Positions 6,433-59,670 of a stretch of 64,000 bases of DNA are shown piece after piece. The translations under genes and the position numbers were made by a program. The stretch lies in the NCBI RefSeq assembly GCF_001677475.2, contig NZ_CP015229.1. One strand, given 5' to 3'. The DNA comes from Escherichia coli. GTDB lineage: Bacteria; Pseudomonadota; Gammaproteobacteria; Enterobacterales; Enterobacteriaceae. The notes beneath the pieces are model-generated. The model did not search any database. It saw nothing but the letters and a program-made list of their open reading frames with translations, and had not been told where the DNA came from. The first letter of the stretch is position 1, and every line of letters begins with the position of its first letter.

Positions 6433-6613
6433 AAGAAATCCTTTCTTAGAGAATTATTGAGGTCCGGTATCATACCGATTGCAATAATGAAATAAGAGCA
6501 AACGAAGAAACTTTCAGAATTAGTCCCGGCGGCGCAGAAAATTTTGCTATTCGCCTCGCAAGAACGGAGAGCCGTCGATTGACACTAAGGGCGGAGTGAC
6601 ATAATTTCAGGAG

Positions 6614-6758
6614 TGAGGGTTAGGGAGAGGTTTCCCCCTCCCCCTGGTGTTCTTAGTAAGCCTGGAAGCTAATCACTAAGAGTATCACCAGTATGATGAC
6701 GTGCTTCATCATAACCCTTTCCTTATTAAAAGCCCTCTTCTCCGGGAGAGGCTTTCCC
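6614..6758 (+). ncRNA. sibA: Sib antitoxin sRNA antisense to ibs copy 1 (ends approximate)
   Basis: Sigma70-like promoter TTGACA (6579-6584), 17-nt spacer, TAATTT (6602-6607) on the plus strand; imperfect GC-rich hairpin plus short T-run at ~6731-6758; fully antisense to the ibs ORF. Confidence 0.6.
6653..6712 (-). CDS. ibsA: Ibs type I toxin, 19 aa (MMKHVIILVILLVISFQAY)
   Basis: Reverse complement of 6653..6712 translates to MMKHVIILVILLVISFQAY plus TAA; this matches the IbsA peptide as I recall it. Below the 60-aa track cutoff. Confidence 0.8.
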   Translation of the reverse strand: MMKHVIILVILLVISFQAY

Positions 6759-6948
6759 GTTTCAGCGTCCCGCTGAAATCGTCGGCTTACCTCCTTTCGC
6801 CCTGAATGCAGTCTATCGCTAACGCGTGAACAAAATAGTTTCCTCTGTGATTATTGCGTAACGACTCGCAAAGAATATTTGCTGGCAGGATCGCAGACTG
6901 CAAAGCCTGCAGATTGACAATCTTATCGTGAAGGCATACTTTCAGGAG

Positions 6949-7092
6949 TGAGGGTAGAGCGGGGGTTCCCCCGCCCTGGTAGTCTTAGTAAGCCGGGAAG
7001 CTTATGACTAAGAGCACCACGATGATGATCCACTTCATCATGACCCTTTCCTTATTTAAGGCCCCTTCCTCGGGAGGGGCTTTCCCGTTTCA
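6949..7092 (+). ncRNA. sibB: Sib antitoxin sRNA antisense to ibs copy 2 (ends approximate)
   Basis: Promoter TTGACA (6914-6919), 17 nt, TACTTT (6937-6942); hairpin gcccct/aggggc at ~7061-7080 followed by cttt. Confidence 0.6.
6985..7041 (-). CDS. ibsB: Ibs type I toxin, 18 aa (MMKWIIIVVLLVISFPAY)
   Basis: Reverse complement translates to MMKWIIIVVLLVISFPAY plus TAA; close to IbsB as I recall it. Confidence 0.75.
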   Translation of the reverse strand: MMKWIIIVVLLVISFPAY

Positions 7093-7276
7093 GCGTCCCG
7101 CTGAAATCATCGGCTTACCTCCTTTCGCCCTGAATGCAGTCTATCGCTGACTTGCGGATAAAATAGTTTCACATGTGATTATTGCGTAGCGTCTCGCAAA
7201 GAATATTTGCTGGCAGGATCGCAGACTGCAAAGCCTGCAGATTGACAATCTTATCGTGAAGGCATACTTTCAGGAG

Positions 7277-7416
7277 TGAGGGTAGAGCGGGGTTTCCCCC
7301 GCCCTGGTAGTCTTAGTAAGCTGGCCAGCTAATGACTAAGAGCACCACGATGATGAGTATCTTCATCATGACCCTTTCCTTATTTAAGACCCCTTCCTCG
7401 GGAGGGGCTTTCCCGT
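7277..7416 (+). ncRNA. Sib antitoxin sRNA antisense to ibs copy 3 (ends approximate)
   Basis: Promoter TTGACA (7242-7247), 17 nt, TACTTT (7265-7270); hairpin ccccttcctcgggagggg at ~7390-7408 followed by ctttcccgttt. Confidence 0.55.
7313..7369 (-). CDS. Ibs type I toxin, 18 aa (MMKILIIVVLLVISWPAY), third copy
   Basis: Reverse complement translates to MMKILIIVVLLVISWPAY plus TAA. Confidence 0.75.
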   Translation of the reverse strand: MMKILIIVVLLVISWPAY

Positions 7417-7576
7417 TTCAGCGTCCCGCTGAAATCGTCGGCTTACCTCCTTTCGCCATGCAAGCAGTCTATCGCTAACGCGTAGATAAAATAGTTTCAT
7501 GTGTTATTACTGGATGCGTGCTCGCAAATGTGCCCGTCATTCAGACGATTCCCGACAGTGTTTCATAATTCCTCCA

Positions 7577-20711: not shown

Positions 20712-20745
20712 TACAGCTGCATTTATTAAGGTTATCATCCGTTTC

Positions 20746-20832
20746 GCTGAAAAACATAACCCATAAAATGCTAGCTGTACCAGGAACCACCTCCTTAGCC
20801 TGTGTAATCTCCCTTACACGGGCTTATTTTTT
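20746..20832 (+). ncRNA. cyaR: CyaR (RyeE) Hfq-dependent sRNA
   Basis: gctgaaaaacataacccataaaatgctagctgtaccaggaaccacctccttagcctgtgtaatctcccttacacgggcttatttttt matches the CyaR sequence as I recall it, including the terminal hairpin and U-tail. Confidence 0.85.
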
Positions 20833-22794: not shown

Positions 22795-22828
22795 TCAAAC
22801 TATTCTTTCTTGAACCAGGGAGAATCCG

Positions 22829-22863
22829 TAATGCCGGATGCGGTGTAAACACCTTATCCGGCA
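22829..22863. repeat. REP-like palindromic element
   Basis: gccggatgcggtgtaaacaccttatccggc palindrome between convergent yegS and gatR. Confidence 0.5.
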
Positions 22864-22875
22864 TACAGAACAATA

Positions 22876-23655
22876 CTACACCGTAATTAATTTTACCCGT
22901 GTCTTCTGCAATGCCAGTTTATCCACCTCTGACACAGCATCATCGGTAATAATAATGTCGATTTTTTCGATTGGCAGTACCTGATTAAAACCACGACGGT
23001 TAAATTTCGATGAATCGAGAACGGCAATCACTTTATTAGCGGCGGTGACCATCGCCCCGCTAATCGAATAACCTTCATTAAAGGTCGTAATACCATTAAC
23101 CGCATCAATACCATCAGCACCGACAAACATTAAATCGGCATTAATATCCTGCAATGAACGCTCGGCAATGGAACCATGCATCGAGCGCGTTTTATGGCGG
23201 ACGGTGCCACCACAGACGACCAGAGTAATGTCTTTATTTTCGGAAAGGGCAAACGCTGCCGGGAGACTATTGGTAATCACCGTGATATTTTTGGCGGTCA
23301 TTAATCCTTCAGCGATAAGCATCGTCGTACTTCCGCTGTCGAGAATAACGGTCATCCCTTCGTGGATCATTTTGACTGCCGCCTGCGCTATTCTGTTTTT
23401 TGGCGCGCTGGCGAGCTGAAATCGCTCTTTAAACCCGACTTCCTGGGTCTCGATTTCACTATTACCAGACATTATTTTCGCCGCACCGCCATGAAAGCGC
23501 GTAACCACGCCTTTTTGTTCGAGAAAGCGCAAATCGGCACGGATTGTCGCTTCCGAGGCAGCAAATACTCCCGCCAGATCCTGAACAAGCACGGTTCCCT
23601 GTTCATTCACTAATTGGATGATCTTATTCCTTCGCTCGAATGAATTCATCGTCAT
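22876..23655 (-). CDS. gatR: DeoR-family repressor of the galactitol operon (intact)
   Basis: 259-aa uninterrupted ORF with N-terminal HTH and C-terminal sugar-phosphate-binding domain; last gene of the gat cluster. Confidence 0.8.
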   Translation of the reverse strand: MTMNSFERRNKIIQLVNEQGTVLVQDLAGVFAASEATIRADLRFLEQKGVVTRFHGGAAKIMSGNSEIETQEVGFKERFQLASAPKNRIAQAAVKMIHEGMTVILDSGSTTMLIAEGLMTAKNITVITNSLPAAFALSENKDITLVVCGGTVRHKTRSMHGSIAERSLQDINADLMFVGADGIDAVNGITTFNEGYSISGAMVTAANKVIAVLDSSKFNRRGFNQVLPIEKIDIIITDDAVSEVDKLALQKTRVKLITV

Positions 23656-23754
23656 TTACCCATATTCAATTGTGGCTAGTGTAAACGAAGGGGGACCATT
23701 GGTGAATGATCTGTTTTGCACAATACCGGGCCAGCATCACGCTGGCCCGCGGTT

Positions 23755-24795
23755 TCAGGGAATGAGCAACACTTTGCCCGGCATAGCATTACGAGCGATG
23801 TCACGCACCGCCTGGGCGAAGCATTCAAAGCTTCCACTGTGAGCGATTAATGGCTCCAGGCTTAACTTACGCTCTGTCAGCAACCGGCTCGCCGTTTCCC
23901 ACTCCTGCCCCGGCCAAGGGCTGGAGTAGTTCATCCAACTGCCGATAACCGTCAGCTCTTTACGCAATATTTTGCCAAACGTTGCCGATGTTAAATGCAG
24001 ATCCTGATGCAATGTGCCCACCAGCGCCAGTTGGGCATGAGGACCGGCAATCTCTACCGCCAGTTCGACGGTTTGCGGGACGCCAGCCGTCTCGAGGATA
24101 AGCTGATTAAAGCGCAGCTCGCGTAAAACGCCCTGCATTTGCGGCGCGCTCATTTCGCTACTGTTAAATGTTTGCATCGCACCGAAAGATTTTGCCAGTG
24201 CCAGTTTTTCTGAGCTAATGTCGATAGCCGTCACACTCTTTGCTCCCAGCGCGACAGCGCACTGAATGGCCAGCAGGCCAATGGTTCCGGCACCAATAAT
24301 AATAACGTTTTTATTCTCACAACCTTGCGCTAAATGAAAAGCATGCAGGCCAACGGTAATCGGTTCAATAAAAGCCCCATCCTCAATAGGCATGTCCGCA
24401 GGTAGAGCAAAGACATTTTTCCGCTTAACGACAATATATTCGGCAAATCCACCATCACGCCGTGAGCCAATAAAATCATATTTTGCGCACTGGGAATAAA
24501 ACCCTTTCAGACACTCTGGACAAGTAAAACAGGGTAATAACGGTACACAGGCAACCGCATCGCCAGGGTGTAAATCATCAACACCGGATCCCACCGCATC
24601 AATATAGCCGCTAAATTCATGGCCTAACGTTATTGGATAATAATGTGCACCATTTTTAAATATCCTGGGTAAATCGGAACCACATAAGCCCGAGCTGGCA
24701 ATTTTTACCCGCACCTCATCCTGATGTTTAATTTCAGGAATGACGCTTTCTGCAACGCGCACGATACCATCAGTATCATTCACCACTGATTTCAT
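23755..24795 (-). CDS. gatD: Galactitol-1-phosphate 5-dehydrogenase (Zn-dependent ADH family)
   Basis: 346-aa ORF with GHEFSG zinc-ADH motif and GAGTIG Rossmann motif. Confidence 0.9.
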   Translation of the reverse strand: MKSVVNDTDGIVRVAESVIPEIKHQDEVRVKIASSGLCGSDLPRIFKNGAHYYPITLGHEFSGYIDAVGSGVDDLHPGDAVACVPLLPCFTCPECLKGFYSQCAKYDFIGSRRDGGFAEYIVVKRKNVFALPADMPIEDGAFIEPITVGLHAFHLAQGCENKNVIIIGAGTIGLLAIQCAVALGAKSVTAIDISSEKLALAKSFGAMQTFNSSEMSAPQMQGVLRELRFNQLILETAGVPQTVELAVEIAGPHAQLALVGTLHQDLHLTSATFGKILRKELTVIGSWMNYSSPWPGQEWETASRLLTERKLSLEPLIAHSGSFECFAQAVRDIARNAMPGKVLLIP

Positions 24796-24842
24796 AAAAA
24801 CTCCTGATTGTTAAGGGGGATAACCTCCCCCTCAGGTAAAAA

Positions 24843-26198
24843 TTATTCTGCGAGAACGGCTTTCTCTTGTTTAATAAAACCACGCGCTCTACGCCAGGTC
24901 ATGAAAATACCGGTCAGATAAATTGCGCCGATAATAATGAAACCGGGAATATTTTGCGGGGAGAAAACCTGAATCAGTAACCAGGTAATGGGAGAACCGC
25001 CCTGATCCATTGAAGCCACCATACCCCCGGCTTTTAACGCCCCAGCATTAGCCGCCAGTTGGGTGTGCAAACCAATAGTTTGCGTCGCGATCCACAGAGT
25101 GATGCTCATGATGATGACACCCGAGATTAAGGTGCGGAACAGATTTCCACGATGCACCGCGACCGCCATCGCCACGAAGAAGCCGATGGTGGCAAGGTCG
25201 CCAAACGGCAGCACCTGATTACCCGGCACACAAACAGCAATTAAAATGGTGAGTGGAATAAAAATCAGGCTTGCCGATACCACCGCCGTATGTCCCAGCA
25301 GCAACGCCGGATCAAGTCCAATCAGGAACTCCTGACCGCCGAACTTCGCCTGTAAACGGCTACGCGCCTGCTTAGCGATGGGCGTTAAACCATCCATGAT
25401 GGGTTTAATCACCCGCGGCATCAGCAGCATAACTGCCGCCGTTTTTACCGCCAGTTGCAATACACCTTTGACATCGTAACCCGCGAGGATGCCGATAATC
25501 AGCCCCATCACAAAACCCACGGTGACCGGTTCGCCAAAAGGACCAAATTTGCGCTGAATATCATCGGCGCTAAATTTAATTCGGTTAACGCCTGGAATTT
25601 TCTCGATGATAGCATCGACCAGCACCGCGATTGGCCCCATATACGCCGACGTACCGTGCGGAATGGCAATGCCTTCCAGCTCAAAGAAATTTCGGGTATC
25701 GCGGGCAAACCAGTCGCCGAGCTTATAAACAAACGCCGCGTGAATTACCACACCCACCATCCCTATCATCCATGAACCGGTTGCCAGATGCAGCAACGCG
25801 CCGGTGAAGGTCATATGCCAGATATTCCAGATATCAACATTTACCACCCGCGTCATACGGGTCAGTAACATCGCCACGTTAACCAGAATCGCAATCGGAA
25901 TCGCCACCAGCGCAATTTGCGACGCCCAGGTCATTGGTGAAGAGCCCGGCCAGCCGACATCGACCACATGCAGATTCAGGTCGAAATTTTCCGCCATCGC
26001 TTTCGCCGCAGGGCCAATGGAATCCAGCATTAAGCCAATCACAAGGCCAATGCCAACAAAGCCAATCCCGATATGCAGACCCGCTTTAAAGCAATCGCCT
26101 GCCTTCATGCCTAATATTTTAGAAAAAATAATGATGACAATCGGCAGCATCACCGTAGGGCCGAGGTCGAGAATATAACGCATGACTTCTGAAAACAT
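24843..26198 (-). CDS. gatC: Galactitol PTS EIIC component
   Basis: 451-aa polytopic membrane ORF within the gat operon. Confidence 0.9.
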   Translation of the reverse strand: MFSEVMRYILDLGPTVMLPIVIIIFSKILGMKAGDCFKAGLHIGIGFVGIGLVIGLMLDSIGPAAKAMAENFDLNLHVVDVGWPGSSPMTWASQIALVAIPIAILVNVAMLLTRMTRVVNVDIWNIWHMTFTGALLHLATGSWMIGMVGVVIHAAFVYKLGDWFARDTRNFFELEGIAIPHGTSAYMGPIAVLVDAIIEKIPGVNRIKFSADDIQRKFGPFGEPVTVGFVMGLIIGILAGYDVKGVLQLAVKTAAVMLLMPRVIKPIMDGLTPIAKQARSRLQAKFGGQEFLIGLDPALLLGHTAVVSASLIFIPLTILIAVCVPGNQVLPFGDLATIGFFVAMAVAVHRGNLFRTLISGVIIMSITLWIATQTIGLHTQLAANAGALKAGGMVASMDQGGSPITWLLIQVFSPQNIPGFIIIGAIYLTGIFMTWRRARGFIKQEKAVLAE

Positions 26199-26201
26199 AG
26201 G

Positions 26202-26486
26202 TCACCCCTGTAAGATAGTCAGAATTTTATTTTGTAATGCTTCGATACCGACACCAGAAACAAAAGGCATGCCGTGAACTAACGGAATATCGCCAAAACT
26301 ACGGTCAACTTTGGCGGTAGTACATATCAAATGCACGCCATCCATATAGGTCTCTATTTCATTAACCCGACACTGGATTAATTCAACAGGAATATTATGA
26401 CTCTGACACAACTCTTTAATTTCTTCCGCCGCCATCGTGGAGGTCGCAACCGCGCCTCCGCAAGCGACAATAATCTTGCGTTTCAT
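26202..26486 (-). CDS. gatB: Galactitol PTS EIIB component
   Basis: 94-aa ORF with active-site Cys motif [11 protein letters not shown]. Confidence 0.9.
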
Positions 26487-26516
26487 AAATAGTCCTTTTT
26501 ATTGTTACAGAGGGAT

Positions 26517-26969
26517 TTATTCGTCTGAATCTAAAACATACTTTGTGAAGTATTCCTTTAACTGGGTTTCAGGAAGAGTGATTAGTGTCTCGACGATATC
26601 GGGCTGTTGTAACTTGCCAAATAAACAGCGTAAAAGTTTCAATTGCTGCTGCGGATTTTCCACAATTAACGCAATAACCAACGATACCGCCACGTCGTTA
26701 TCATCATCCGCTTGCTGAAAATGAACTTTATTTGTTGGCCTTAACAGATAAATGGCTGACGACTTAGCATGAATCGCCTCACAATGCGGTATTGCAATGG
26801 CGTGCTGCTCAAGCATTATCCCGGTAGGGAATTCTGCTTCTCTGGCAATTAATGCCTGTGGCCAGGTATCATGAACCACACCTTTCGCGAGCATCTCATT
26901 ACCAATATGGGTTAAAACTTCGCTACGATCGGCAAAAGAAATTCCGCTACGAACAAACAGGTTAGTCAT
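26517..26969 (-). CDS. gatA: Galactitol PTS EIIA component
   Basis: 150-aa ORF, position and size match gatA. Confidence 0.9.
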   Translation of the reverse strand: MTNLFVRSGISFADRSEVLTHIGNEMLAKGVVHDTWPQALIAREAEFPTGIMLEQHAIAIPHCEAIHAKSSAIYLLRPTNKVHFQQADDDNDVAVSLVIALIVENPQQQLKLLRCLFGKLQQPDIVETLITLPETQLKEYFTKYVLDSDE

Positions 26970-26978
26970 ATACCATCC

Positions 26979-28241
26979 TTATTCCGCACAGCCGTAGCAA
27001 TAGGCGCGCAAAACATCATAAATTTTATCCATAATCAGCTGATGCGGTATTGCTGATAATTCCCCGGACTGAATGCGTTCAAATTGTTTGGGAAGATACT
27101 GACTAATCATGCCCAGTGGGATGTCCACGCCTTGCAGATTCACCATCATCGTTTCAACGCTATTTTTAATCCGACTATGCGGCCAGTAATAACGAATACG
27201 ATCCGACAGGCTGTAACGAATATCCAGTAATGAATCGTTAAAACCCGTACGATAATATTTTTTCCAGTATTGCGGTTCGTCGAGCATCACTTCTTCAATT
27301 ACCGCCAGGCAACCGCTGCGATTTTCGGGGGCGATAAGTTCCTGCTCAATTTGTGCCAGCGCAAATATCGCCTCACGTAAAGCAAAGGTTAATGCTGGCC
27401 CTACTTTCAAAATTGCAAAGTGATCGCGGACTAATTCCCAATAAGCCGTCCGGGTCTGGTAATCGGTGGAATGTGCTTCATAAACCATTTTGCTGTTTTC
27501 TATCCATTGCGCCAGCGCCTGCGCTTCTTGCGGCTGATAATGGATAATATTGCTGTGATCAAATTCAACGCCAGGCTGTACCACTATCGCAATCACGCGC
27601 GTTAACGCCTCTGTCAGGCCACGGGCAATAAACGCTTTTTGATGTGTGCGTAAAGTATTGGCAGCATCTTCTACCTTTGTGATGTGCACCGACTGAATGG
27701 CGCTGGCCTCACCGCCCGGAACCGGAACTTCGGTGCCAATCACATAAGTCAGTTGTTCACGCTGGTCATCTGTCGCCACGCTTTCCGCAGCAAAGCAAAG
27801 TACAGCGGCACGTTCAGCTACCGTTTCTGGCGCTAACGGTACAGGATCACCCGCACAGGACATTGACGCATCAAGATGAATTTTACTGAAACCGGCACGA
27901 ACATATGCCTTTACCAGCTCGACGGATTTTTCCATCGCCGCATCCGCATTTTCTTGCTGCCAGCAGTTTGGCCCCAGATGATCACCGCCGAGAATAATGC
28001 GCTCGCGCGCAAACCCAACTCTATCGGCAATCGCAAAAACAAATTCGCGAAAATCTGCCGGTGTCATTCCGGTATAACCGCCAAATTGATTGACCTGGTT
28101 TGACGTTGCTTCAATCAGCACTTTGCGTGTGCTGTTGAGATCGAAAGCCAGCGCCGCTTCAATAACCAACGGATGCGCCGAACAGACTGAACAAATTCCG
28201 ATATGTTCACCGGCTTTATGCCGGGCAATTAACGTTTTCAT
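26979..28241 (-). CDS. gatZ: Tagatose-bisphosphate aldolase non-catalytic subunit
   Basis: 420-aa ORF between gatA and gatY. Confidence 0.9.
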
Positions 28242-28269
28242 GGTTTTTCCTTGTTAAATGGCAGATGCG

Positions 28270-29178
<909 letters not shown>

Positions 29179-29285
29179 TTAAATGTCGAGGTAACGATCA
29201 CAAAAACGACAATTCGAAAATTAATCAGAATGACAGGCAAAAAAACGGCCTCCCGATAGGGAAGCCGTAGCAAAGTGCGCGTGTT

Positions 29286-29432
<147 letters not shown>

Positions 29433-29441
29433 TAAAACGTA

Positions 29442-48417: not shown

Positions 48418-51400
48418 ATGAGACACTTTATCTTTCAGGACGAAAAATCACATAAATTCTGGGCGGTGGAGCAGCAGGGAAACGAGCTGCATATCAACTG
48501 GGGAAAAGTCGGCACCAACGGGCAAAGTCAGGTAAAAAGCTTTGCTGATGCTGCGGCGGCGGAAAAAGCGGAACTGAAGTTGATTGCGGAGAAGATTAAG
48601 AAGGGGTATGTGGATGATGGTTCGCCAGAAACCATCATAAACTCTCCGATATCAAGCACAGTTTCAGTACAAGAGTTAGCAATATCAACAGGAAACTTCA
48701 CAACGACTGAAACGGCACAGCCACAAGCGATGCCCACGTTGGAAACGCCGCCCTGGCTGAAGAACGGTGAGTCAATTGTTATTTTTGCCAATGCTGAACC
48801 CGCGCCGTTTAGCCATCGTCACTTGATTAATGATCCTCTGGACATTGTTGATAAAGATGGCTTCTTCTGGATACAACTAAAAGAGTACCCATATTGGGCA
48901 GCATTTTACCTTGCCTGTCTGCAAAAGTTCGATGTCAGCCAATGCCAGTCAGAATGGCAATTGGCGTTACAGGAAACTATTTCGCGCATCCAGAAATTAC
49001 AGCAAGACGGATCGTTGCTTTCCGACGTCATATTGACACTGACAAGATTAATTATCGGCCGCCCCGGTCGCCCTCATACATGGCTGGATAGCATAGTGCA
49101 ACTGCGAGGCCTTGAGTATGCCACTGAGTTAGTTATCGCTATGCAGCATGTACAAATGACTGACGACGCAAATACCGATCCTACAAAAAATGCCACTTTA
49201 AAACTTCATTACAATAGTCTTTTTAGTGCGCTGAGAAGAGGGGAAATGGCAGACAATTATTATCTACCTGTAGTAAGCCTTAGCCACGATATTTCCGACA
49301 TGCGCTACAAATATGGATTCAGCGACGAAATAGAGTTACGTTTACGAGAACACCTTTCGCACACAGATGAGGAAACCTGGCAACGCTGTGCTAATAAACT
49401 CATAGATGCTCTCCCTTCACTGCCTCCCCGCAAACGCCCATTAATTGCTTTTTTGCTACCAGAAAAACCAGATATTGCCAATCAGATAGCCCTGGAAATT
49501 GCCCCTATGCATGATTACCCAGAGATTGAGTGGCTTTCCCTTGTCACAACTGACCCGCAAGCAACGTGTCTGCTGAAGAATTTCCATCAACTTGAACTCA
49601 CAACGGGATGGGGAGGCGATATGACGAATCGTTGTATTAAAACCCTACTGCGTGAACAAGGTCTTAATGCCCTGTCACGTCTGCAAGAGGGAGTTAACGA
49701 TAGTTATCCTGTCAGACACGCACTTCAGGAAATTAACCATCCTGATGTCGTTACGTTGTTTATCAAAGAGGAATGTGCCATAGGTGTCGAAATTTCGGCT
49801 TCGAAGTACCCAGAATCGGCGCTTTATGCCCTTACTGCAGCTTTGCTTAGTGCTAAAAATCTGAGGTATTCTCGCCTGATGGAACGAATTGTATTAGGTA
49901 ATGCTCAAACCTTGCGTAATACAATGCCCTGGTTGAGTGAGGAACAGAAACAACTTTTATTCAGTTATTTTCCTCAACTTCATGCTAAAGAAGAGATAGC
50001 CAATGCTTGTGAGTTACCCGGTATATTAACTAATCCAATTTGGCTGAAGAAAAAGAATAAATCCGCCACGACGATATTTACATTACCCGTATTGCCTCTG
50101 GAGTCCATTGGCCCCAACCCTCAGCCACAACCCGAAGCAGAAATACCTTCTACTGCTGAAGTCTTACGCCACCTGGGATTCAGTAGTGGAGCATTTGAAG
50201 AGAATAATCCTGATCCAGAAAGATTCGATATTAAATGGGGCGTAACCAAAACGGCCATTCGTCTTCTGGAAACGGAAGATTATGAATCGTTGTTAAATAC
50301 CCGACCAAAGTATGATTATGAAGGTTTTATTACCTTTTATGTATCCATACTCACTCGTCTACCAGCAGAGAAAGCGCTCTCAATCTGGAATGGACTCTCA
50401 CACATGCACCTCGTGGGTGCTGAGAAAGTGGTTGAGCGATTTGGTCTATCTACGGTACCGGGTCTGTTGCGTTATGCCCTGGTAAACCCTAAGGAGGCGG
50501 TTCCCCTGGCAGCACAATTCGGTGCAACTGAAGTTGCCCTGCTGATGGCCCGCGCATTTTGCCAGTTAAAATCCGTACGAGATGTCGCCGAATATTGGCT
50601 CACCACCTACCCGGAACATGCCATTACCGGGCTGCTGCCTATTGCGCTGGGTAAACCAGTTAAAGAACAACAAGATGCCCGGATGACATTACGCTACCTG
50701 GTCAATAATGGTCATCTCGCGTTGCTGAAAAAAATTGCCAGCCGTTACCAACAACCTGAGGTAATAACTGCACTTACCGACTTTTTAGCAGCAGATCCGC
50801 TGGAAAACTATCCACAGAAAATCGCCAAACTCCCTGGGTGGTGTTCACCAGAAGTATGGCACCGCCCGCTTCTGCGCAGTAACGGCAAGGCACTTTCAGA
50901 TTCAGCCATCCTGCACCTGTGCACCATGCTCTCTTTTCCCCGCGAAGCCACCCTTTACCCAGGGATAACACAGGTAATCAAGGCCTGTACTCCGCAATCT
51001 CTTGCCGATTTCGCCTGGGATCTCTTCCTCAGTTGGGAATCTGCCAGTGGCTCCGCTAAAGATAACTGGGCATTTACCGCACTGGGGATTCTGGGCAACG
51101 ATGACACCGCCCGCAAACTCACCCCGCTCATCCGCGCCTGGCCGGGGGAATCTCAGCATAAACGCGCCACTGTCGGGCTGGATATTCTTGCTGCTATCGG
51201 CAGCGATATCGCCCTGATGCAGCTTAACGGCATCGCGCAAAAGCTAAAATTTAAAGCCTTGCAGGATCAGGCAAGAGTTAAAATCGCCCAGATTGCCGAA
51301 AGCCGCCAACTCACCGTCGCAGAAATGGAAGACCGGTTAGCGCCGGATCTCGGACTGGATGATAACGGCTCACTACTGCTGGATTTCGGCCCACGCCAGT

Positions 51401-52254
51401 TCACCGTCAGCTTTGATGAATCCTTAAAACCGTTTGTGCGCGATGCTTCCGGCAGCCGCCTGAAAGACCTGCCCAAACCGAACAAAAGCGATGATGAAAC
51501 ACTGGCTGAGGAAGCGGTAAATCGCTACAAGTTGTTGAAAAAAGATGTCCGCACGGTGGCAGCGCAACAAATTTCGCGTCTGGAAGCCGCCATGTGTCAG
51601 CGTCGCCGCTGGACAGCAGAACAGTTCCGCCTGTTTCTGGTTGAGCATCCCCTGGTACGTCATATCACCCAACGTCTGATGTGGGGCGTATACGATGCAG
51701 ATAATCAGCTTATCACCTGTTTTCGCGTGGCGGAGGATGGCAGTTTTAGCGACGGTCAGGATAACCCGTTAACCCCTGCGCAGGGTAGCATCGGTATCCC
51801 GCATGTGCTGGAAATCCCGGCCCCGCAGGCGGCTGAATTTGCTCAACTGTTTTCTGACTACGAACTCCTGCCACCGTTCCGTCAACTCGATCGCCCCTGG
51901 TCTCAGCTCTCTGATTCAGAAAAAAACAGCAACGATTTGCAGCGCTGGGCTGGTCGCCAGGCACCAAGTGGGCGCGTCGCCGGGCTGATGAATAAAGGCT
52001 GGCAACGGGGCGATGTGCTGGATGGTGGCGGCTATTACTCATTTTATAAAGCTGTGGATGATGGCTACGTCGAACTGAGTGTGACACCCGGCTTCAGTGT
52101 TGGATTACCCGTCACCGAAATCAGCGCCAGCCAAAAAATTGAGCACATTCAGTTGTGCAAACTGACGCCGCACAAATCGGTTTATCCCTTCTCCGTGCTC
52201 GACGACATCACCGCCAGCGAACTCATTAACGATATTGAATCACTGTTTGATTAA
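48418..52254 (+). CDS. molR: Giant WGR-domain/DUF4132-type protein, paralog 1 (molR-like), 1278 aa
   Basis: Uninterrupted 1278-aa ORF; N-terminal ~60 aa has WGR-domain character (KFWAVEQQGNELHINWGKVGTNGQSQ); C-terminal ~350 aa conserved with paralogs 2 and 3. Symbol from memory of the K-12 locus after metG. Confidence 0.75.
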   Translation: MRHFIFQDEKSHKFWAVEQQGNELHINWGKVGTNGQSQVKSFADAAAAEKAELKLIAEKIKKGYVDDGSPETIINSPISSTVSVQELAISTGNFTTTETAQPQAMPTLETPPWLKNGESIVIFANAEPAPFSHRHLINDPLDIVDKDGFFWIQLKEYPYWAAFYLACLQKFDVSQCQSEWQLALQETISRIQKLQQDGSLLSDVILTLTRLIIGRPGRPHTWLDSIVQLRGLEYATELVIAMQHVQMTDDANTDPTKNATLKLHYNSLFSALRRGEMADNYYLPVVSLSHDISDMRYKYGFSDEIELRLREHLSHTDEETWQRCANKLIDALPSLPPRKRPLIAFLLPEKPDIANQIALEIAPMHDYPEIEWLSLVTTDPQATCLLKNFHQLELTTGWGGDMTNRCIKTLLREQGLNALSRLQEGVNDSYPVRHALQEINHPDVVTLFIKEECAIGVEISASKYPESALYALTAALLSAKNLRYSRLMERIVLGNAQTLRNTMPWLSEEQKQLLFSYFPQLHAKEEIANACELPGILTNPIWLKKKNKSATTIFTLPVLPLESIGPNPQPQPEAEIPSTAEVLRHLGFSSGAFEENNPDPERFDIKWGVTKTAIRLLETEDYESLLNTRPKYDYEGFITFYVSILTRLPAEKALSIWNGLSHMHLVGAEKVVERFGLSTVPGLLRYALVNPKEAVPLAAQFGATEVALLMARAFCQLKSVRDVAEYWLTTYPEHAITGLLPIALGKPVKEQQDARMTLRYLVNNGHLALLKKIASRYQQPEVITALTDFLAADPLENYPQKIAKLPGWCSPEVWHRPLLRSNGKALSDSAILHLCTMLSFPREATLYPGITQVIKACTPQSLADFAWDLFLSWESASGSAKDNWAFTALGILGNDDTARKLTPLIRAWPGESQHKRATVGLDILAAIGSDIALMQLNGIAQKLKFKALQDQARVKIAQIAESRQLTVAEMEDRLAPDLGLDDNGSLLLDFGPRQFTVSFDESLKPFVRDASGSRLKDLPKPNKSDDETLAEEAVNRYKLLKKDVRTVAAQQISRLEAAMCQRRRWTAEQFRLFLVEHPLVRHITQRLMWGVYDADNQLITCFRVAEDGSFSDGQDNPLTPAQGSIGIPHVLEIPAPQAAEFAQLFSDYELLPPFRQLDRPWSQLSDSEKNSNDLQRWAGRQAPSGRVAGLMNKGWQRGDVLDGGGYYSFYKAVDDGYVELSVTPGFSVGLPVTEISASQKIEHIQLCKLTPHKSVYPFSVLDDITASELINDIESLFD

Positions 52255-52266
52255 AAGGATTTAGCA

Positions 52267-55200
52267 ATGAAAACCTATATTTATCAGGACGAAAAATCAC
52301 ATAAATTCTGGGCGGTGGAGCAGCAAGACAACGAGCTGCATATTAGCTGGGGTAAAGTCGGTACTAACGGGCAAAGTCAGGTAAAAAGCTTTGCTGATGC
52401 TGCGGCGGCGGAAAAAGCGGAACTGAAGTTGATTGCGGAGAAAACAAAAAAGGGCTACGTAGAAGAAGTATCCGTGATAACACCGACATCTGTCCCCGTC
52501 CAGGTTATCGAATGCCCCGAAATAGCCCCTTTGCCACAAGACAAACCAGTATTTGTTGGAGACAACCTCCCCTGGCTGGCAGACGACGCCCAAATCATTT
52601 TACCGACAGAGGTTGCGCCAACCACACTAAGTCATCGACGCTGGCCTGGCGATCCTGTGCCACAGGAGAATGAATTAACTCTGCTACGCTCCGTCGCCGC
52701 GAATACTCACCGACGTTTTAAAAAGGTGATCACCTTCGATTACAGCACCTGTTCACTGGACTGGCAGCAGGCGATAACACAAGCAGTGGGCCTTATCGAC
52801 TCGCCGATTAGCACCACGCTACCACCGATGGTTCTGGCGGTACTGGTTGCGCTGGAACAAGGCTTCAATCGTAACGATCACGAAGAGTTAATGGATCAAA
52901 TTGTCCAGGAAGGTGGTCTGGAATATGCCACTGAGGTTGTCATTGCACTACAATTCATCCGCTTCGACTGGGATTATGATGCCCATCTTATTACGTTCAC
53001 CCCGGATGACAGGCAGCCTGGCTATCTGTTGCGCTTTGCCTCGGTTGAAATGCGCCTGCGCAAGCATTTCTCACTTGCAAATGACGATGTATGGCAGCGC
53101 TGCGCCGACAAACTGATTGCCGCTCTCGGAAACATGCCCGCCTGGCACCAGCCGCTGGTTGCACTATTGTTGCCGGAAAAACCAGAAGTAGCTCATGAGA
53201 TTGCCAGACATTTTTGCGGGCAAAAAGGGTTATATGCGCTGGAATGGCTAAAACTGACGGTCACCGATGCTCAGGTATTAGCAGACCTGGAAAAATACTA
53301 TCCAGGACAGCCTGGGCAGGTATTTGATGATTACTATGGCGGTAACATCTGGTGTGCGACAGCACTCCAGGAGCAAGGAGTCACTGCGCTGGCCCGTTTT
53401 GCCCATTACGCTACTGGTGACACATGTGGTGAAGTGTTGATGCATATCAACCACCCGCAGGCACTTACACTACTTATCCATGCAAGCGAGCAAGGAAAGC
53501 GTTGCCACGATCGCATGACAAAGGCTTTCGTTCGCTTCCCACACGCAGCGCTGGCGGCATTAGCAGAACTTCTGGCACAAAAAGATGAAAAGCGCTGGCG
53601 CATGATGCTAATGACGATGCTTATCTCGCAACCGGCACTAGCAGAACAGGTCACTCCCTGGCTCTCAACCCCCGCAGTTGCAGTGCTGAAATCATGCCAG
53701 CAACAACTGACACAGCCCTCAAACCATGCCAGCGCCGATCTACTGCCAGCCATATTAGTCTCACCGCCCTGGCTTTCGAAAAAGAAAAAATCTGTAATGC
53801 CGGTATTGGATTTAACGCCATTACCGCTGGAGTCATGCTGCACATTGACCGAGACGGCAGAAAAAGAGATTCATGCAAGGCATCGCTGGCACGCACATCA
53901 AATAGACGTCGGCCAAAAAGAGGATATTCAGAACTACCTGACACGTCTGGGTTTCAATCGCTGGAATAATGGCCAGTATATGAAAGCGTCTGATGCTGTT
54001 GTAGAACTCTGGCAGAGGGGAGATTATTCTGCGCTAATCAGCGAATTTAAAACCTTCTGGCACTCCTATCAACGGGAATGGCAGCTTTACATGTTAGCCG
54101 CCCTGCCTATCGAAAAAACAGCGCAGGCGTGGAATGTCCTCAGTAAAGAGCCACACGTCGGTGTCGAGTTTGTCATGACGCACCTGCAACTCGCTGGGTT
54201 ACAGGGTTTTATTCACTCCTTTTCACGCTATCCACAAGAAGCTCTGCCTGTAGCACAATATTTTGCGGCTATCGAATTAGCGCCACTGATCGCCCGCGCC
54301 TTCAACAAACTCAAAACCCTACGACAAGACGCCCGCACCTGGCTGCTGAAATACCCGGAACACGCCATTACCGGCCTGCTACCTTCGGCGCTCGGCAAAG
54401 CCGGTGAAGCACAGGATAACGCCCGCGCTGCCTTGCGTATGCTTACCGAAAACGGTCATCAGCCATTACTGCAAGAAATCGCCCGGCGTTATAACCAGCC
54501 GGAAGTAACAGATGCGGTGAACGCTCTGCTTGCGCTCGATCCCTTAGATAATCACCCGACAAAAATCCCCACTCTTCCGGCCTTTTATCAGCCATCGCTC
54601 TGGACGCGCCCGGTATTAAAAGCAAATGCCCAATCACTGCCAGATAGCGCCCTCCTACGCCTCGGCGAAATGCTCCGCTTCCCTCAGGAAGAGGCACTGT
54701 ATCCGGGATTATTGCAGGTGAAAGCCGCCTGTACCGCCGACTCACTGGCTGAATTTGCCTGGGATCTGTTTACCGCCTGGCAGACCGCTGGCGCACCGTC
54801 GAAAGAAAGCTGGGCGTTCACTGCGTTAGGTGTTCTCGGCAACGATGACACCGCCCGCAAACTGACGCCTTTGATTCGCGCCTGGCCTGGTGAATCCCAG
54901 CATAAACGCGCCACCGTCGGGCTGGATATTCTCGCTGCTATCGGTAGTGATATCGCCCTGATGCAGCTTAACGGGATCGCCCAGAAACTGAAATTCAAAG
55001 CATTACAGGAGCGGGCAAAAGAAAAAATTGCCGACATTGCCGAGAGTCGCGAACTGACGGTAGCGGAGCTTGAAGATCGGTTAGCACCGGATCTCGGTCT
55101 GGATGATAACGGTTCGCTGCTGCTGGATTTTGGCCCACGGCAGTTCGCCGTCAGCTTTGATGAAACCTTAAAACCGTTTGTGCGCGATGTTTCCGGCAGC

Positions 55201-56028
55201 CGCCTGAAAGACTTACCTAAACCCAATAAAAGCGATGATGAATCACAGGCGAACGATGCTGTTAACCGCTACAAATTGCTGAAAAAAGATGCGCGTACCG
55301 TCGCCGCCCAGCAGGTAGCAAGGCTGGAATCCGCCATGTGCCTGCGCCGCCGCTGGTCGCCGGAAAACTTTCAGCTCTTCCTGGTTGAGCATCCGCTGGT
55401 TCGTCACTTAACCCGCCGTCTGATTTGGGGCGTTTATAGCGCCGAAAACGAGCTACTGGCTTGCTTTCGCGTGGCGGAAGATAACAGCTACAGCACCACA
55501 GACGATGATCTTTTCACCCTGCCGGAAGGCGATATCTCTGTTGGTATTCCTCACGTTCTGGAAATATCACCCACGGATGCCGCTGCCTTTGGTCAGCTTT
55601 TTGCCGACTACGAACTGTTACCGCCGTTCCGCCAGCTTGACCGCAACAGTTACGCGCTGACAGAAGCCGAACGCAACGCCAGTGAACTGTCCCGCTGGGC
55701 CGGCAGAAAATGTCCGAGCGGTCGAGTAATGGGGCTGGCGAATAAAGGCTGGATGCGTGGTGAACCGCAGGACGGTGGCTGGATCAGCTGGATGATCAAA
55801 CCTCTGGGCCGCTGGTCGTTAATTATGGAAATCGATGAAGGTTTTGCGGTCGGCATGTCGCCAGCCGAACTGAGTGCCGAGCAACTCTTAAGCAAGGTGT
55901 GGCTATGGAAAGGCAAAGCAGAAAACTATGGCTGGAGGAGTTATTCAACACAGGAAGCGCAGTTCTCCGTACTCGATGACATCACCGCCAGCGAGCTGAT
56001 TAGCGATATTGAATCTCTGTTTGAATAA
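52267..56028 (+). CDS. Giant WGR-domain/DUF4132-type protein, paralog 2, 1253 aa
   Basis: Uninterrupted 1253-aa ORF 12 nt downstream of paralog 1, with near-identical N-terminal WGR segment and conserved C-terminal region. Confidence 0.75.
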   Translation: MKTYIYQDEKSHKFWAVEQQDNELHISWGKVGTNGQSQVKSFADAAAAEKAELKLIAEKTKKGYVEEVSVITPTSVPVQVIECPEIAPLPQDKPVFVGDNLPWLADDAQIILPTEVAPTTLSHRRWPGDPVPQENELTLLRSVAANTHRRFKKVITFDYSTCSLDWQQAITQAVGLIDSPISTTLPPMVLAVLVALEQGFNRNDHEELMDQIVQEGGLEYATEVVIALQFIRFDWDYDAHLITFTPDDRQPGYLLRFASVEMRLRKHFSLANDDVWQRCADKLIAALGNMPAWHQPLVALLLPEKPEVAHEIARHFCGQKGLYALEWLKLTVTDAQVLADLEKYYPGQPGQVFDDYYGGNIWCATALQEQGVTALARFAHYATGDTCGEVLMHINHPQALTLLIHASEQGKRCHDRMTKAFVRFPHAALAALAELLAQKDEKRWRMMLMTMLISQPALAEQVTPWLSTPAVAVLKSCQQQLTQPSNHASADLLPAILVSPPWLSKKKKSVMPVLDLTPLPLESCCTLTETAEKEIHARHRWHAHQIDVGQKEDIQNYLTRLGFNRWNNGQYMKASDAVVELWQRGDYSALISEFKTFWHSYQREWQLYMLAALPIEKTAQAWNVLSKEPHVGVEFVMTHLQLAGLQGFIHSFSRYPQEALPVAQYFAAIELAPLIARAFNKLKTLRQDARTWLLKYPEHAITGLLPSALGKAGEAQDNARAALRMLTENGHQPLLQEIARRYNQPEVTDAVNALLALDPLDNHPTKIPTLPAFYQPSLWTRPVLKANAQSLPDSALLRLGEMLRFPQEEALYPGLLQVKAACTADSLAEFAWDLFTAWQTAGAPSKESWAFTALGVLGNDDTARKLTPLIRAWPGESQHKRATVGLDILAAIGSDIALMQLNGIAQKLKFKALQERAKEKIADIAESRELTVAELEDRLAPDLGLDDNGSLLLDFGPRQFAVSFDETLKPFVRDVSGSRLKDLPKPNKSDDESQANDAVNRYKLLKKDARTVAAQQVARLESAMCLRRRWSPENFQLFLVEHPLVRHLTRRLIWGVYSAENELLACFRVAEDNSYSTTDDDLFTLPEGDISVGIPHVLEISPTDAAAFGQLFADYELLPPFRQLDRNSYALTEAERNASELSRWAGRKCPSGRVMGLANKGWMRGEPQDGGWISWMIKPLGRWSLIMEIDEGFAVGMSPAELSAEQLLSKVWLWKGKAENYGWRSYSTQEAQFSVLDDITASELISDIESLFE

Positions 56029-56037
56029 GGAAATAAC

Positions 56038-59000
56038 ATGAACAAGGAATTACCGTGGCTGGCGGATAACGCACAACTGGAACTGAAATATAAAAAAGGC
56101 AAAACGCCGCTCAGCCATCGCAGTTGGCCGGGCGAACCGGTGCCTGTTATTACTGAAAGCCTCATCCAGACACTGGGTGATGAATTGCTACAAAAAGCTG
56201 AGAAGAAAAAAAACATTATCTGGCGTTATGAAAATTTTTCACTGGAGTAGCAGTCCGCCATCACGGAAGCCATCAACTTGATTGGCGAACACAAACCCTC
56301 AATTCCGGCACGGACAATGGCGGCGCTAGTCTGTATCGCGCAAAAGGACAGCCAACAGTTGCTCGACGAAATCGTCCAACAAGAGGGACTGGAATATGCG
56401 ACTGAGGTGGTGATTGCACGCCAGTTTATTACACGATGTTATGAGAGTGATCCTCTGCTAGTGACATTGCAGTATCAGAACGAGGACTATGGCTATGGTT
56501 ATCGCTCAGAAACCTATAACGAATTCGATCTGCGACTGCGTAAGCATCTCTCTCTGGCAGAGGAAAGCTGCTGGCAGCGTTGCGCCGACAAACTCATTGC
56601 CGCACTGCCAGGAATACCCAAAATTCGCCGTCCTTTTATTGCGCTGGTCCTCCCGGAAAAACCAGAAATAGCCAATGAGTTGGTAGGTCTTGAATGCCCG
56701 CGGACTCATTTTCATTCTAAGGAGTGGTTAAAAGCTGTTGCTACTGCCCCCCGGGCGGTGAGAAAACTCGAACACTACTGGAGCCAGGATATATTTAGCG
56801 ATCGCGAAGCCAGCTACATGTCGCATGAAAACCGCTTCGGGTACGCGGCCTGCGCCGCCCTTTTGCGTGAACAAGGACTGGCAGCCGTTCCGCGCCTGGC
56901 AATGTATGCCCATAGAGAGGATTGCGGAAGCCTGCTGGTACAAATTAACCATCCGCAGGTCATCCGCACCTTGCTGTTAGTTGCTGATAAAAACAAACCC
57001 AGCCTGCAACGTGTGGCTAAATACAGTAAAAATTTCCCCCACGCGACACTCGCCGCACTGGCAGAACTGCTGGCGCTAAAAGAACCACCTGCGCGTCCTG
57101 GTTATCCAATCATCGAAGACAAAAAGCTGCCTGCACAGCAAAAAGCACGTGATGAATACTGGCGTACGCTGTTACAAACGCTGATGGCATCGCAGCCACA
57201 ACTGGCAGAAGAGGTGATGCCGTGGTTAAGTACTCAAGCCCGGTCAGTGCTGAATAGTTATTTATCGGCACCGCCTAAAACGGTTATTGATAGCACCGAT
57301 AACAGCCAAATGCCTGAAATCCTCGTTTCACCACCGTGGCGTAGTAAGAAAAAAATGACAGTTCCACGTCTTGATTTGGCACCGTTCGAATTAACGCCGC
57401 AAGTTTACTGGAAACCAGGCGAACGAGAGAGGCTTGCCGCCACTGAGTCTGCCCGTTATTTCAGTACGGAATCTCTTGCGGAACGCATGGAACATAAAAG
57501 TGGACGAGTTGTACTACAGGAGCTGGGTTTTGGAGATGATGTATGGCTGTTTTTGAATTATATACTCCCCGGAAAACTGGATGCTGCACGCAATTCACTC
57601 ATTGTTCAGTGGCATTACTACCCAGGGCGGGTTGAAGAGATCATGAATGGCTGGAGCTCCCCGGAAGCTCAATTAGCAGAACAGGCGCTTCGCAGCGGTC
57701 ACGTAGAAGTGTTAATTAACATATGGGAAAATGACAGCTACTCACGCTATCGTCGGGAAAAGAGTATCTGGAACCTGTATTTATTGGCGCAGTTGCCGCG
57801 TGAGATGGCTTTGACTTTCTGGCTACGTATCAATGAGAAAAAGCATCTGTCTGCGGGTGAGGACTATTTTCTCAGTATCTTCGGATTGGATGCTCTACTA
57901 GGTCTGCTGTTGGCTTTTTCACATCGTCCAAAAGAAACATTTCCGTTAATTTTAAATTTCGGCGCAACCGAACTAGCCCTGCCCGTTGCCCGCGTCTGGC
58001 GACGTTTCGCGGCGCAGCGTGATCTGGCCCGCCAGTGGATTTTACAATGGCCGGAACATACGGCTACTGCACTTATCCCTCTTGTCTTCACCAAATCCAG
58101 CGATAATAGCGAAGCTGCATTACTTGCCCTGCGTTTACTTTACGAACAGGGACATGGCGAGTTACTGCAAACCGTGGCAAACCGCTGGCAGCGTACAGAT
58201 GTATGGCCTGCCCTGGAGCAATTACTTAAACAGAGTCCAATAGAGATTTACCCGACACGCATTCCAAAAGCCCCTGATTTCTGGCAGCCGGCAATGTGGT
58301 CCAGGCCGCGCCTTATCACGAATAATCAACCTGTTACTGATGACGCTCTGGAAATTATCGGCGAAATGCTGCGCTTTACCCAGGGCGGACGTTTTTATAG
58401 CGGACTGGAACAGCTGAAAACGTTTTGCCAGCCGCAAACGCTGGCAGCCTTTGCCTGGGATCTTTTCACCGCGTGGCAACAAGCTGGTGCTCCCGCAAAA
58501 GACAACTGGGCATTTCTGGCGTTAAGTCTCTTTGGCGACGAAAGCACGGCACGGGATCTGACGACACAGATCCTTGCCTGGCCACAGGAAGGCAAATCTG
58601 CCCGTGCTGTCAGTGGTCTGAATATACTTACTCAGATGAATAATGATATGGCACTGATACAGTTGCATCATATATCGCAACGGGCGAAATCCCGCCCCTT
58701 ACGTGATAACGCGGCGGAATTTCTTCAGGTGGTCGCAGAAAATCGCGGGCTAAGCCAGGAACAGTTAGCGGACAGATTAGTCCCAACACTGGGTCTTGAT
58801 GATCCGCAGGCGTTGATTTTTGATTTTGGTCCACGGCAATTTACCGTTCGCTTCGATGAAAACCTTAACCCGGTTATCTTTGATCAGCAAAACGTTCGCC
58901 AGAAAAGCGTTCCCCGGTTGCGCGCCGATGACGATCAACTGAAAGCACCCGAGGCACTGGCCCGACTAAAAGGGCTAAAAAAAGATGCCACTCAGGTGAG

Positions 59001-59670
59001 CAAAAACCTGCTCCCGCGTCTTGAAACTGCCCTGCGCACCACCCGACGCTGGTCGCTGGCAGATTTTCATTCTCTGTTTGTTAATCATCCCTTTACCCGC
59101 CTGGTTACTCGGCGATTGATATGGGGTGTTTATCCGGCAAATGAACCGCGTCGTTTACTCAACGCCTTTCGTGTGGCCGCTGAGGGGGAGTTCTGCAATG
59201 CGCAAGATGAGCCAATTGACCTGCCTGCCGATGCTCTGATTGGCATTGCCCACCCGTTAGAAATGGCAGCAGAAATGCGCAGTGAATTTGCACAGCTTTT
59301 TGCCGATTACGAAATTATGCCGCCTTTTCGCCAGTTGGCACGGCGCACAGTGCTGCTCACGCCTGACGAGTCAGCCAGTAATAGTTTGAATCGCTGGGAA
59401 GGTAAATCTGCTACCGTTGGGCAACTTATGGGAATGCGATACAAAGGCTGGGAGTCAGGCTATGAGAACGCATTTGTCTATGACCTGGGCGAGTACCGGC
59501 TGGTCCTTAAGTTTTCATCCGGTTTTAACCACTACAATGTTGATAGCAAAGCGCTAATGAGCTTCCGTTCTCTTCATGTATACCGTGAGAATAAATCTGT
59601 CACTTTTGCCGAACTTGATGTGTTTGATTTGAGTGAAGCGTTAAGCGCACCCGACGTTATTTTCCATTAA
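56038..59670 (+). pseudogene. yehI: yehI-like DUF4132 paralog 3 with in-frame amber codon at 56248..56250
   Basis: Track ORFs 56038..56250 and 56278..59670 are in the same frame, separated only by TAG (..ENFSLE*QSAITEAINLIGEH..). The full span is 1210 codons plus stop. Lacks the WGR N-terminal module of paralogs 1 and 2. Confidence 0.75.

Follow-up and report, generated by a model that had tools for sequence, protein, structure and literature searches.

The window analysed here, a stretch of 64,000 nucleotides of Escherichia coli DNA, carries a complete gat cluster on its minus strand. The six structural genes gatYZABCD occupy positions 23755..29124, in the order gatY (28270-29124), gatZ (26979-28241), gatA (26517-26969), gatB (26202-26486), gatC (24843-26198) and gatD (23755-24795); all of them are full-length from ATG to stop, with neither stops nor gaps in comparison with reference genes. 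The regulatory gene gatR lies just downstream of gatD on the same strand, and is convergent with yegS. The gatYZABCD-gatR order is also kept in Enterobacter, Kosakonia and Phytobacter, together with a spacer of ~105-110 nt between gatD and gatR. In the loci of the Enterobacter, Kosakonia and Phytobacter type, the cluster is located between garD and rsmI-lpoA, and in E. coli it is located between fbaB and yegS; the whole gatYZABCD-gatR cluster has moved as a unit.

The gatR reading frame and its start codon

In the initial annotation gatR was described as one unbroken open reading frame (ORF) of 259 codons, and this is indeed what the minus strand holds, the frame running from an ATG at 23655 to a TAG stop at 22876-22878 with no internal stops. 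Alignment to functional GatR orthologues reveals neither a frameshift nor a premature stop, and there are 0 gaps with respect to the allele of E. coli HS. The figure of 259 aa stands as the longest reading of the frame; as the length of the likely protein it gives way to 257 aa, encoded at 22876..23649 (minus strand, 257 aa and the TAG stop), an assignment that draws on the ORF, on membership of the DeoR family, on a conserved second ATG and on the PGAP annotation. GatR is most likely 257 aa because this second ATG (23649, MNSFERRNKI...) is conserved in the Enterobacter-, Kosakonia- and Phytobacter-type loci, because GatR orthologues are essentially all of 257 aa, because PGAP annotates gatR as 774 nt starting at the second ATG, and because a GGG Shine-Dalgarno-like triplet is found 9 nt upstream of the second ATG and only 3 nt upstream of the first. 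The triplet at the position of the first ATG (23655) is ATC or ATT in the three types of loci mentioned above, and shows no conservation. We regard the ATG at 23649 as probably being the true gatR start. A survey across E. coli genomes reported gatR start codons that are either ATG or non-ATG (PMC11445065); in the window, both candidate starts (23649 and 23655) are ATG. The choice between 257 and 259 aa has no effect on the conclusion that gatR is intact.

Domain architecture and family membership

The protein displays the architecture of the DeoR/GlpR family, with a DeoR-type helix-turn-helix (HTH) at its N-terminus and a DeoRC region at its C-terminus. The HTH_DeoR DNA-binding domain (PF08220) covers residues 8-60 of the 259-aa form (23476..23634, minus strand) and was recognized in Pfam with E=1.3e-16 and 60.5 bits, against a cut-off of 21; the DeoRC sensor/oligomerisation domain (PF00455) covers residues 85-238 in the same numbering (22942..23403, minus strand), with E=2.6e-51 and 174.2 bits against a cut-off of 31.8. 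These two matches rule out that 22876-23655 is a chance ORF. The DeoRC part is also distantly matched to the structure of the C-terminal domain of DeoR (7L6L).

The best NCBIfam matches were to AgaR (NF040755, 232.7 bits) and SrlR (NF007753, 225.9 bits), the repressors for N-acetylgalactosamine and glucitol (the latter also known as GutR), which are paralogues within the DeoR family and have the two-domain architecture in common with GatR. Both scores lie under the curated equivalog cut-offs, of 260 and 350 bits respectively, and the protein is therefore neither AgaR nor SrlR; furthermore, the gene in the window is linked to gat genes, whereas these paralogues belong with aga or srl genes. What identifies it as a GatR orthologue is its location just downstream of gatYZABCD on the same strand, as well as a full-length, gap-free alignment to an experimentally proven GatR, that of E. 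coli HS (WP_001295426.1), with which it has 256 of 257 residues in common.

Sequences flanking gatR

The spacer between gatD and gatR (23650..23754, minus strand) is 100% identical to that of E. coli HS, and contains a hairpin and a weak candidate promoter for gatR. The hairpin has an 8-bp stem (23728-23748, minus strand), directly follows the gatD stop, and persists across genera, where a single compensatory change replaces G:C by A:U; it has no T-run in E. coli, and may act as an attenuator or as an mRNA-stabilising element between the two genes. The candidate promoter (minus strand; -35 TTCACC at 23701-23706, -10 TACACT at 23678-23683, 17-nt spacing) is put forward on cross-genus conservation, its -10 reading TAGAAT in the Enterobacter-type locus; with 8/12 matches, it was not called by the promoter scan. 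The conservation of this element suggests that gatR may use both read-through from gatD and a promoter of its own.

At the other end of the gene, a hairpin of the REP type (22826..22868, minus strand; MFE -29.8 kcal/mol, z = -4.1), which we take to be a REP sequence, separates the convergent gatR and yegS, and is likely a 3'-end/terminator element for both. Neither gatR nor its flanks gave a match to an Rfam family, the matches to CyaR and naRNA4 being elsewhere. The small RNA CyaR (RyeE) is encoded at 20744-20829 (plus strand; 100.7 bits) between yegQ and yegR, an interval in which K-12 holds a P2-prophage remnant (ogrK and a fragment of gene D) that the window does not have. The match to naRNA4, a REP-derived nucleoid-associated RNA (65.7 bits; 29341-29411, minus strand), falls in the cluster of REP elements that separates fbaB from the gatY promoter.

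The IS3 insertion of K-12 and the empty site in the window

The gatR::IS3E lesion of K-12 and the constitutive expression of gat in that strain have reportedly been known since 1996, the work of Nobelmann and Lengeler being, it is said, the primary E. coli paper, and also the one that described GatR of wild isolates. The initial annotation had named both an IS disruption and constitutive expression, and both statements prove correct. The PGAP annotation of the K-12 derivative NEB5-alpha splits gatR into two pseudogene pieces around a transposase gene, described as 'IS3-like element IS3 family transposase', and according to the literature MG1655 has its gatR disrupted by IS3E and, as a result, expresses gat constitutively (PMC5850726; bioRxiv 10.64898/2026.01.05.697630). 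One passage of PMC5850726 names the element IS1, while other papers say IS3 or IS3E; considering these other papers, the PGAP annotation and the size of 1,258 bp, 'IS1' appears to be a slip.

Comparison of the gatD-yegS interval of the window with K-12 yields two aligned pieces, with a 3-nt overlap and 1,258 bp between them. The K-12 junctions read ...GGGATGAC|TGATCCTACC...(IS3)...GGGTAAGATCA|GACCGTTATT, which corresponds to a 3-bp target duplication of GAC, and the alignment places the unoccupied target site of the window at 23351..23353 (minus strand), where a single GAC spans codons 101/102. IS3 in K-12 thus sits between codons 101 and 102 in the 259-aa numbering and severs the HTH domain from the sensor domain. 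The gatR::IS3 (IS3E) pseudogene of K-12 MG1655 and its derivatives is the same gene, in the same position, as gatR of the window; the difference is that K-12 has acquired a 1,258-bp IS3 and a duplicated GAC, whereas the window, with its single GAC and no IS3 sequence anywhere, displays the empty site. The alignment to K-12 gatR that had been proposed as a check was performed with the IS excised in silico, and the K-12 protein then differs from that of the window only by T68I. The K-12 gatR::IS3 allele is a lineage-specific lesion, and the window holds the ancestral empty site.

Occurrence of intact gatR in E. coli

The occurrence of intact gatR was evaluated by searching 5,426 complete E. coli genomes with a region of 1,180 nt composed of the end of yegS, gatR and the end of gatD. 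It is matched without interruption in 4,756 of the 5,426 genomes. In all, 5,797 matched places were recorded in 5,418 genomes, with a maximum of two per genome, which implies that 379 genomes hold the gatR region in two pieces; approximately 308 genomes match only at 80-90% identity and, among the matches listed, it is the yegS end alone that is covered. A 140-nt probe for the K-12 gatR/IS3 junction was fully matched in 345 of the complete genomes, and the carriers among the matches listed are laboratory strains. The comparison of these numbers, 4,756 uninterrupted copies against 345 with the K-12 junction, indicates that an intact gatR is the norm of the species. The lesion of K-12 is in essence a single event in one lineage, and intact gatR is the default of E. 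coli, not a peculiarity of the strain from which the window derives.

Search for insertion sequences across the window

The claim that no IS is present anywhere in the 64 kb was examined through collinearity with transposase-free genomes, a search for IS3 and self-comparison, and it is supported for the whole window. Positions 1-22000 and 22001-43000 each align in one piece, over nearly their whole length, to annotated chromosomes without a transposase there, and 43001-64000 is collinear with a reference that lacks transposases. The only poorly aligned stretch, at ~48.6-52.2 kb, is located by a Pfam scan inside an ORF of 1,278 aa of the WGR/DUF4132 type. K-12 IS3 had no blastn match in the window, and self-comparison revealed as internal repeats only the ibs/sib tandem units and the paralogous mdtB/mdtC and DUF4132 genes. 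These four lines of evidence led us to reject the presence of a concealed IS or of a piece of one.

At 6600-7528, three tandem units of ~330 nt, 84-89% identical, constitute ibs/sib type I toxin-antitoxin repeats, for which three Ibs toxins are annotated in the collinear reference and two in E. coli HS. At 48418-59670 (plus strand), three consecutive intact paralogues encode two WGR+DUF4132 proteins of 1,278 aa and 1,253 aa and a DUF4132 protein of 1,130 aa; the first WGR+DUF4132 gene has ~71% DNA identity to its paralogues in the closest complete genome, which has a WGR pseudogene fragment at this location. A draft E. coli assembly (GCA_033745465.1) matches the window over 6,774 nt at 100% identity, and the best of the 5,426 complete RefSeq E. 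coli genomes reaches ~97.2-97.4% identity over 1-43 kb and ~93.7% (86% coverage) over 43-64 kb. The lineage of the window is poorly represented among complete genomes.

Functionality of the repressor

E. coli HS provides the closest experimentally characterized counterpart of this gene. Introduction of its native gatR in place of the MG1655 pseudogene led to a regulated gat operon (Sousa et al., PMC5850726), and de novo IS insertions in the HS-derived gatR gave rise to constitutive mutants once again (PMC5850726). The HS locus has the same arrangement as that of the window (yegS / gatR-gatD-gatC-gatB-gatA-gatZ-gatY / fbaB), and its GatR is of the same length; the HTH domain is identical in the window, HS and K-12 alleles. 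HS differs from the window in a single linker residue of GatR, and in its control region and gatYZ segment, which belong to another allele class, 6-11.5% diverged.

The two gatR genes are separated by 13 nucleotide differences, which amount to 12 synonymous codon changes and one non-synonymous change. The latter, T68I (residue 66 in 257-aa numbering), affects codon 68 (ATC, Ile; 23452..23454, minus strand) in the linker between the two domains, and is the sole amino-acid difference from HS. One could envisage that this substitution, or poor transcription or translation of gatR, impairs the repressor and leaves the operon constitutive despite an intact ORF: T68I replaces a polar residue by a hydrophobic one, Ile is absent from this position in the 17 other orthologues aligned, and the promoter scan detected no strong promoter in the gatD-gatR spacer. 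This possibility appears extremely remote, however, considering that in an alignment of 18 orthologues, with identity down to 71%, the residue 68 column (T/A/S/N/G) belongs to the part of the protein that varies most, while every one of the ~125 invariant columns is kept in the window protein. In addition, the 257-aa and 259-aa forms both have exact matches in NCBI E. coli records, on 48 and 36 E. coli contigs for the two start variants, which identifies a lineage allele rather than an isolated defect; synonymous changes outnumber non-synonymous ones by 12:1, which points to purifying selection on gatR; and the spacer upstream is 100% identical to that of HS, whose gatR works. The reading of gatR as a functional repressor is thus preferred.

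Other systems provide a broader context for this reading. The gat cluster of Salmonella (Nolle et al. 2017) is reported to have another gene content, which includes a tagatose kinase and an MFS transporter. GatR of Salmonella Typhimurium and GatR of the window are both DeoR-type proteins, and the former represses gat promoters in the account given in PMC7972205, which also cites Nolle et al. 2017 for the observation that deletion of the HTH abolishes repression. In the natural E. coli isolates LF82 and CFT073, CRISPRi silencing of gatR was beneficial in the mouse gut (bioRxiv 10.64898/2026.01.05.697630), which indicates that intact gatR represses actively in vivo.

The gatY control region as presumed target of GatR

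The presumed target of GatR is the control region of gatY (29125..29244, minus strand), delimited upstream by the fbaB terminator (29245-29268) and proposed through comparison of motifs, of alleles and of genera. Proceeding toward the gatY ATG (29124), the minus strand holds TTGTCGTTT (29204-29212), which includes an inverted TGTCGTTT core (29204-29211); a putative CRP-like site, TGTGA-N6-CCTCG (29187-29202); the predicted -35 TCGACA (29184-29189); the predicted -10 CATTAT (29160-29165), inside an AgaR-like core, TTTCATTATGTTTT, of the TTTCRTTT type (29155-29168); and the inverted AAACGACAGG (29133-29142), with a second TGTCGTTT core (29135-29142). If gatY transcription starts near 29153, the CRP site would be centred at -41.5, as in class II promoters.

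Short repeats in an AT-rich promoter such as that of gatY were not accepted by themselves, and only those with conservation between alleles and between genera were retained. In seven E. coli alleles the block ATTGTCGTTTTTGTGATCGTTA does not vary; the -10 region is identical in 6/6 of those that still carry it among the seven aligned, and AAACGACAGG is identical in 5/6 of the alleles that retain the -10 region. Counterparts are found at the same positions in other genera, in the form of TCTTTCATTT, TAAGA-N6-TCACA and AAACGAAAGG, and every block that shows conservation among E. coli alleles and between genera is kept in the window. Across the 64 kb we count 6 copies of the TGTCGTTT core versus 2.2 expected by chance, and a search with the AgaR-like consensus, which the gatY-promoter core matches at 13/14 positions, yielded 3 matches in the same stretch versus 0.64 expected; these excesses are modest and suggestive only. 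A generic promoter and terminator scan of 22.7-29.5 kb found no excess over shuffled sequence (8 vs 9.7 promoters; 8 vs 8.7 terminators), and only the gatY promoter match and the fbaB terminator were kept from it, because both are at conserved positions.

Three short motifs are the likeliest GatR operators: the pair of inverted T(G/T)TCGTTT cores and the site that overlaps the -10. GatR would bind to sites in this control region and hold the operon off, the two inverted TGTCGTTT-containing cores surrounding a CRP-dependent promoter and the third candidate site lying over the -10 hexamer; repression would occur by promoter occlusion, possibly with looping, and galactitol or its phosphorylated product would presumably relieve it.

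Divergence of the control region and of gatYZ

In comparison with K-12 and HS, the control region has 12 changed positions and a 2-nt indel in ~120 nt, which corresponds to 88.5% identity (~11.5% diverged) versus ~98% for gatR through gatA. Compared with HS the operon is a mosaic (26979-29441), in which the divergence amounts to ~2% in gatR-gatA, 5.8% in gatZ, 6.3% in gatY, 11.5% in the control region and ~14% in the REP cluster. In E. coli as a whole, several identity classes can be distinguished for the control region, with 575 genomes having at least 95% identity, 3,934 having 90-95% and 595 having 80-90%.

These observations evoke the question of whether GatR is functional and the divergent gatY control allele nevertheless shifts the response, through CRP dependence, through the basal strength of the promoter, or through repression that is tighter or leakier. 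In that case the strain would still be repressible, with a quantitative difference from HS or from K-12 with its repressor restored. The only window-specific change, absent from the six other E. coli alleles aligned, is a T-to-C in the right half-site of the putative CRP site; the -35 also differs from K-12, TCGACA being the common form and the TCGATA of K-12 a minority among the sampled alleles. Strains LF82 and CFT073, moreover, appear to under-induce gat in vivo (bioRxiv 10.64898/2026.01.05.697630). On the other hand, all of the blocks conserved within the species and across genera are retained, the differences are mostly at positions that vary among other alleles too, and an effect of these polymorphisms on expression is hypothetical. 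A shifted response is therefore considered unlikely.

A more speculative proposal, and one that we consider improbable, is that gatZ, gatY and above all the ~120-nt control region represent an old, recombining polymorphism of E. coli with at least three allele classes. The minority allele of the window has a changed CRP half-site and a consensus-like -35; combined with a GatR whose DNA-binding domain is unaltered, it might shift the threshold for induction or the sensitivity to catabolites. If true, this would amount to a natural variation of gat regulation, at a locus that is known for strong and fluctuating selection in the gut.

A regulator would be phenotypically irrelevant if the pathway were inactive for another reason, such as missense changes in the divergent gatY or gatZ, or a temperature-sensitive Gat system. 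GatZ and GatY have 96.4% and 95.8% protein identity to a reference, and the gat operon is often inactivated in other strains. Strain 2012C-4221 has an internal stop in gatC and IS110 and phage genes in place of gatY, NEB5-alpha has IS5 in gatB, and a deletion in strain 11899A takes out the -10 and start of gatY; such independent damage fits the view that gat is inactivated frequently. Nonetheless, none of the six structural genes of the window is truncated, interrupted by a stop or gapped, and a control-region allele that is 98.2% identical is found in a complete genome with an annotated gatY, so that an inactive pathway is regarded as very improbable. A working pathway under the control of GatR remains the favoured reading.

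Implications for the biology of gat in E. coli

The initial annotation had considered the operon of this strain as probably repressible, an expectation that is well supported by the intact structural genes and by the control-region blocks that are kept. We infer that gatR in the window is very likely a functional, galactitol-responsive repressor, and the overall explanation, in which the window carries a wild-type functional gatR with an empty IS3 site and K-12 carries the lesion, is held with high confidence. An intact gatR and its disruption in K-12 represent biology that is already known, and it is K-12, not the strain of the window, that is the odd one. During evolution in the gut, gat-negative mutants sweep in K-12, and none emerged once a working gatR had been put back (PMC5850726); strains such as that of the window should therefore act as natural isolates with regulated gat, and not as MG1655. 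These considerations provide a caution against extrapolating gat behaviour from K-12.
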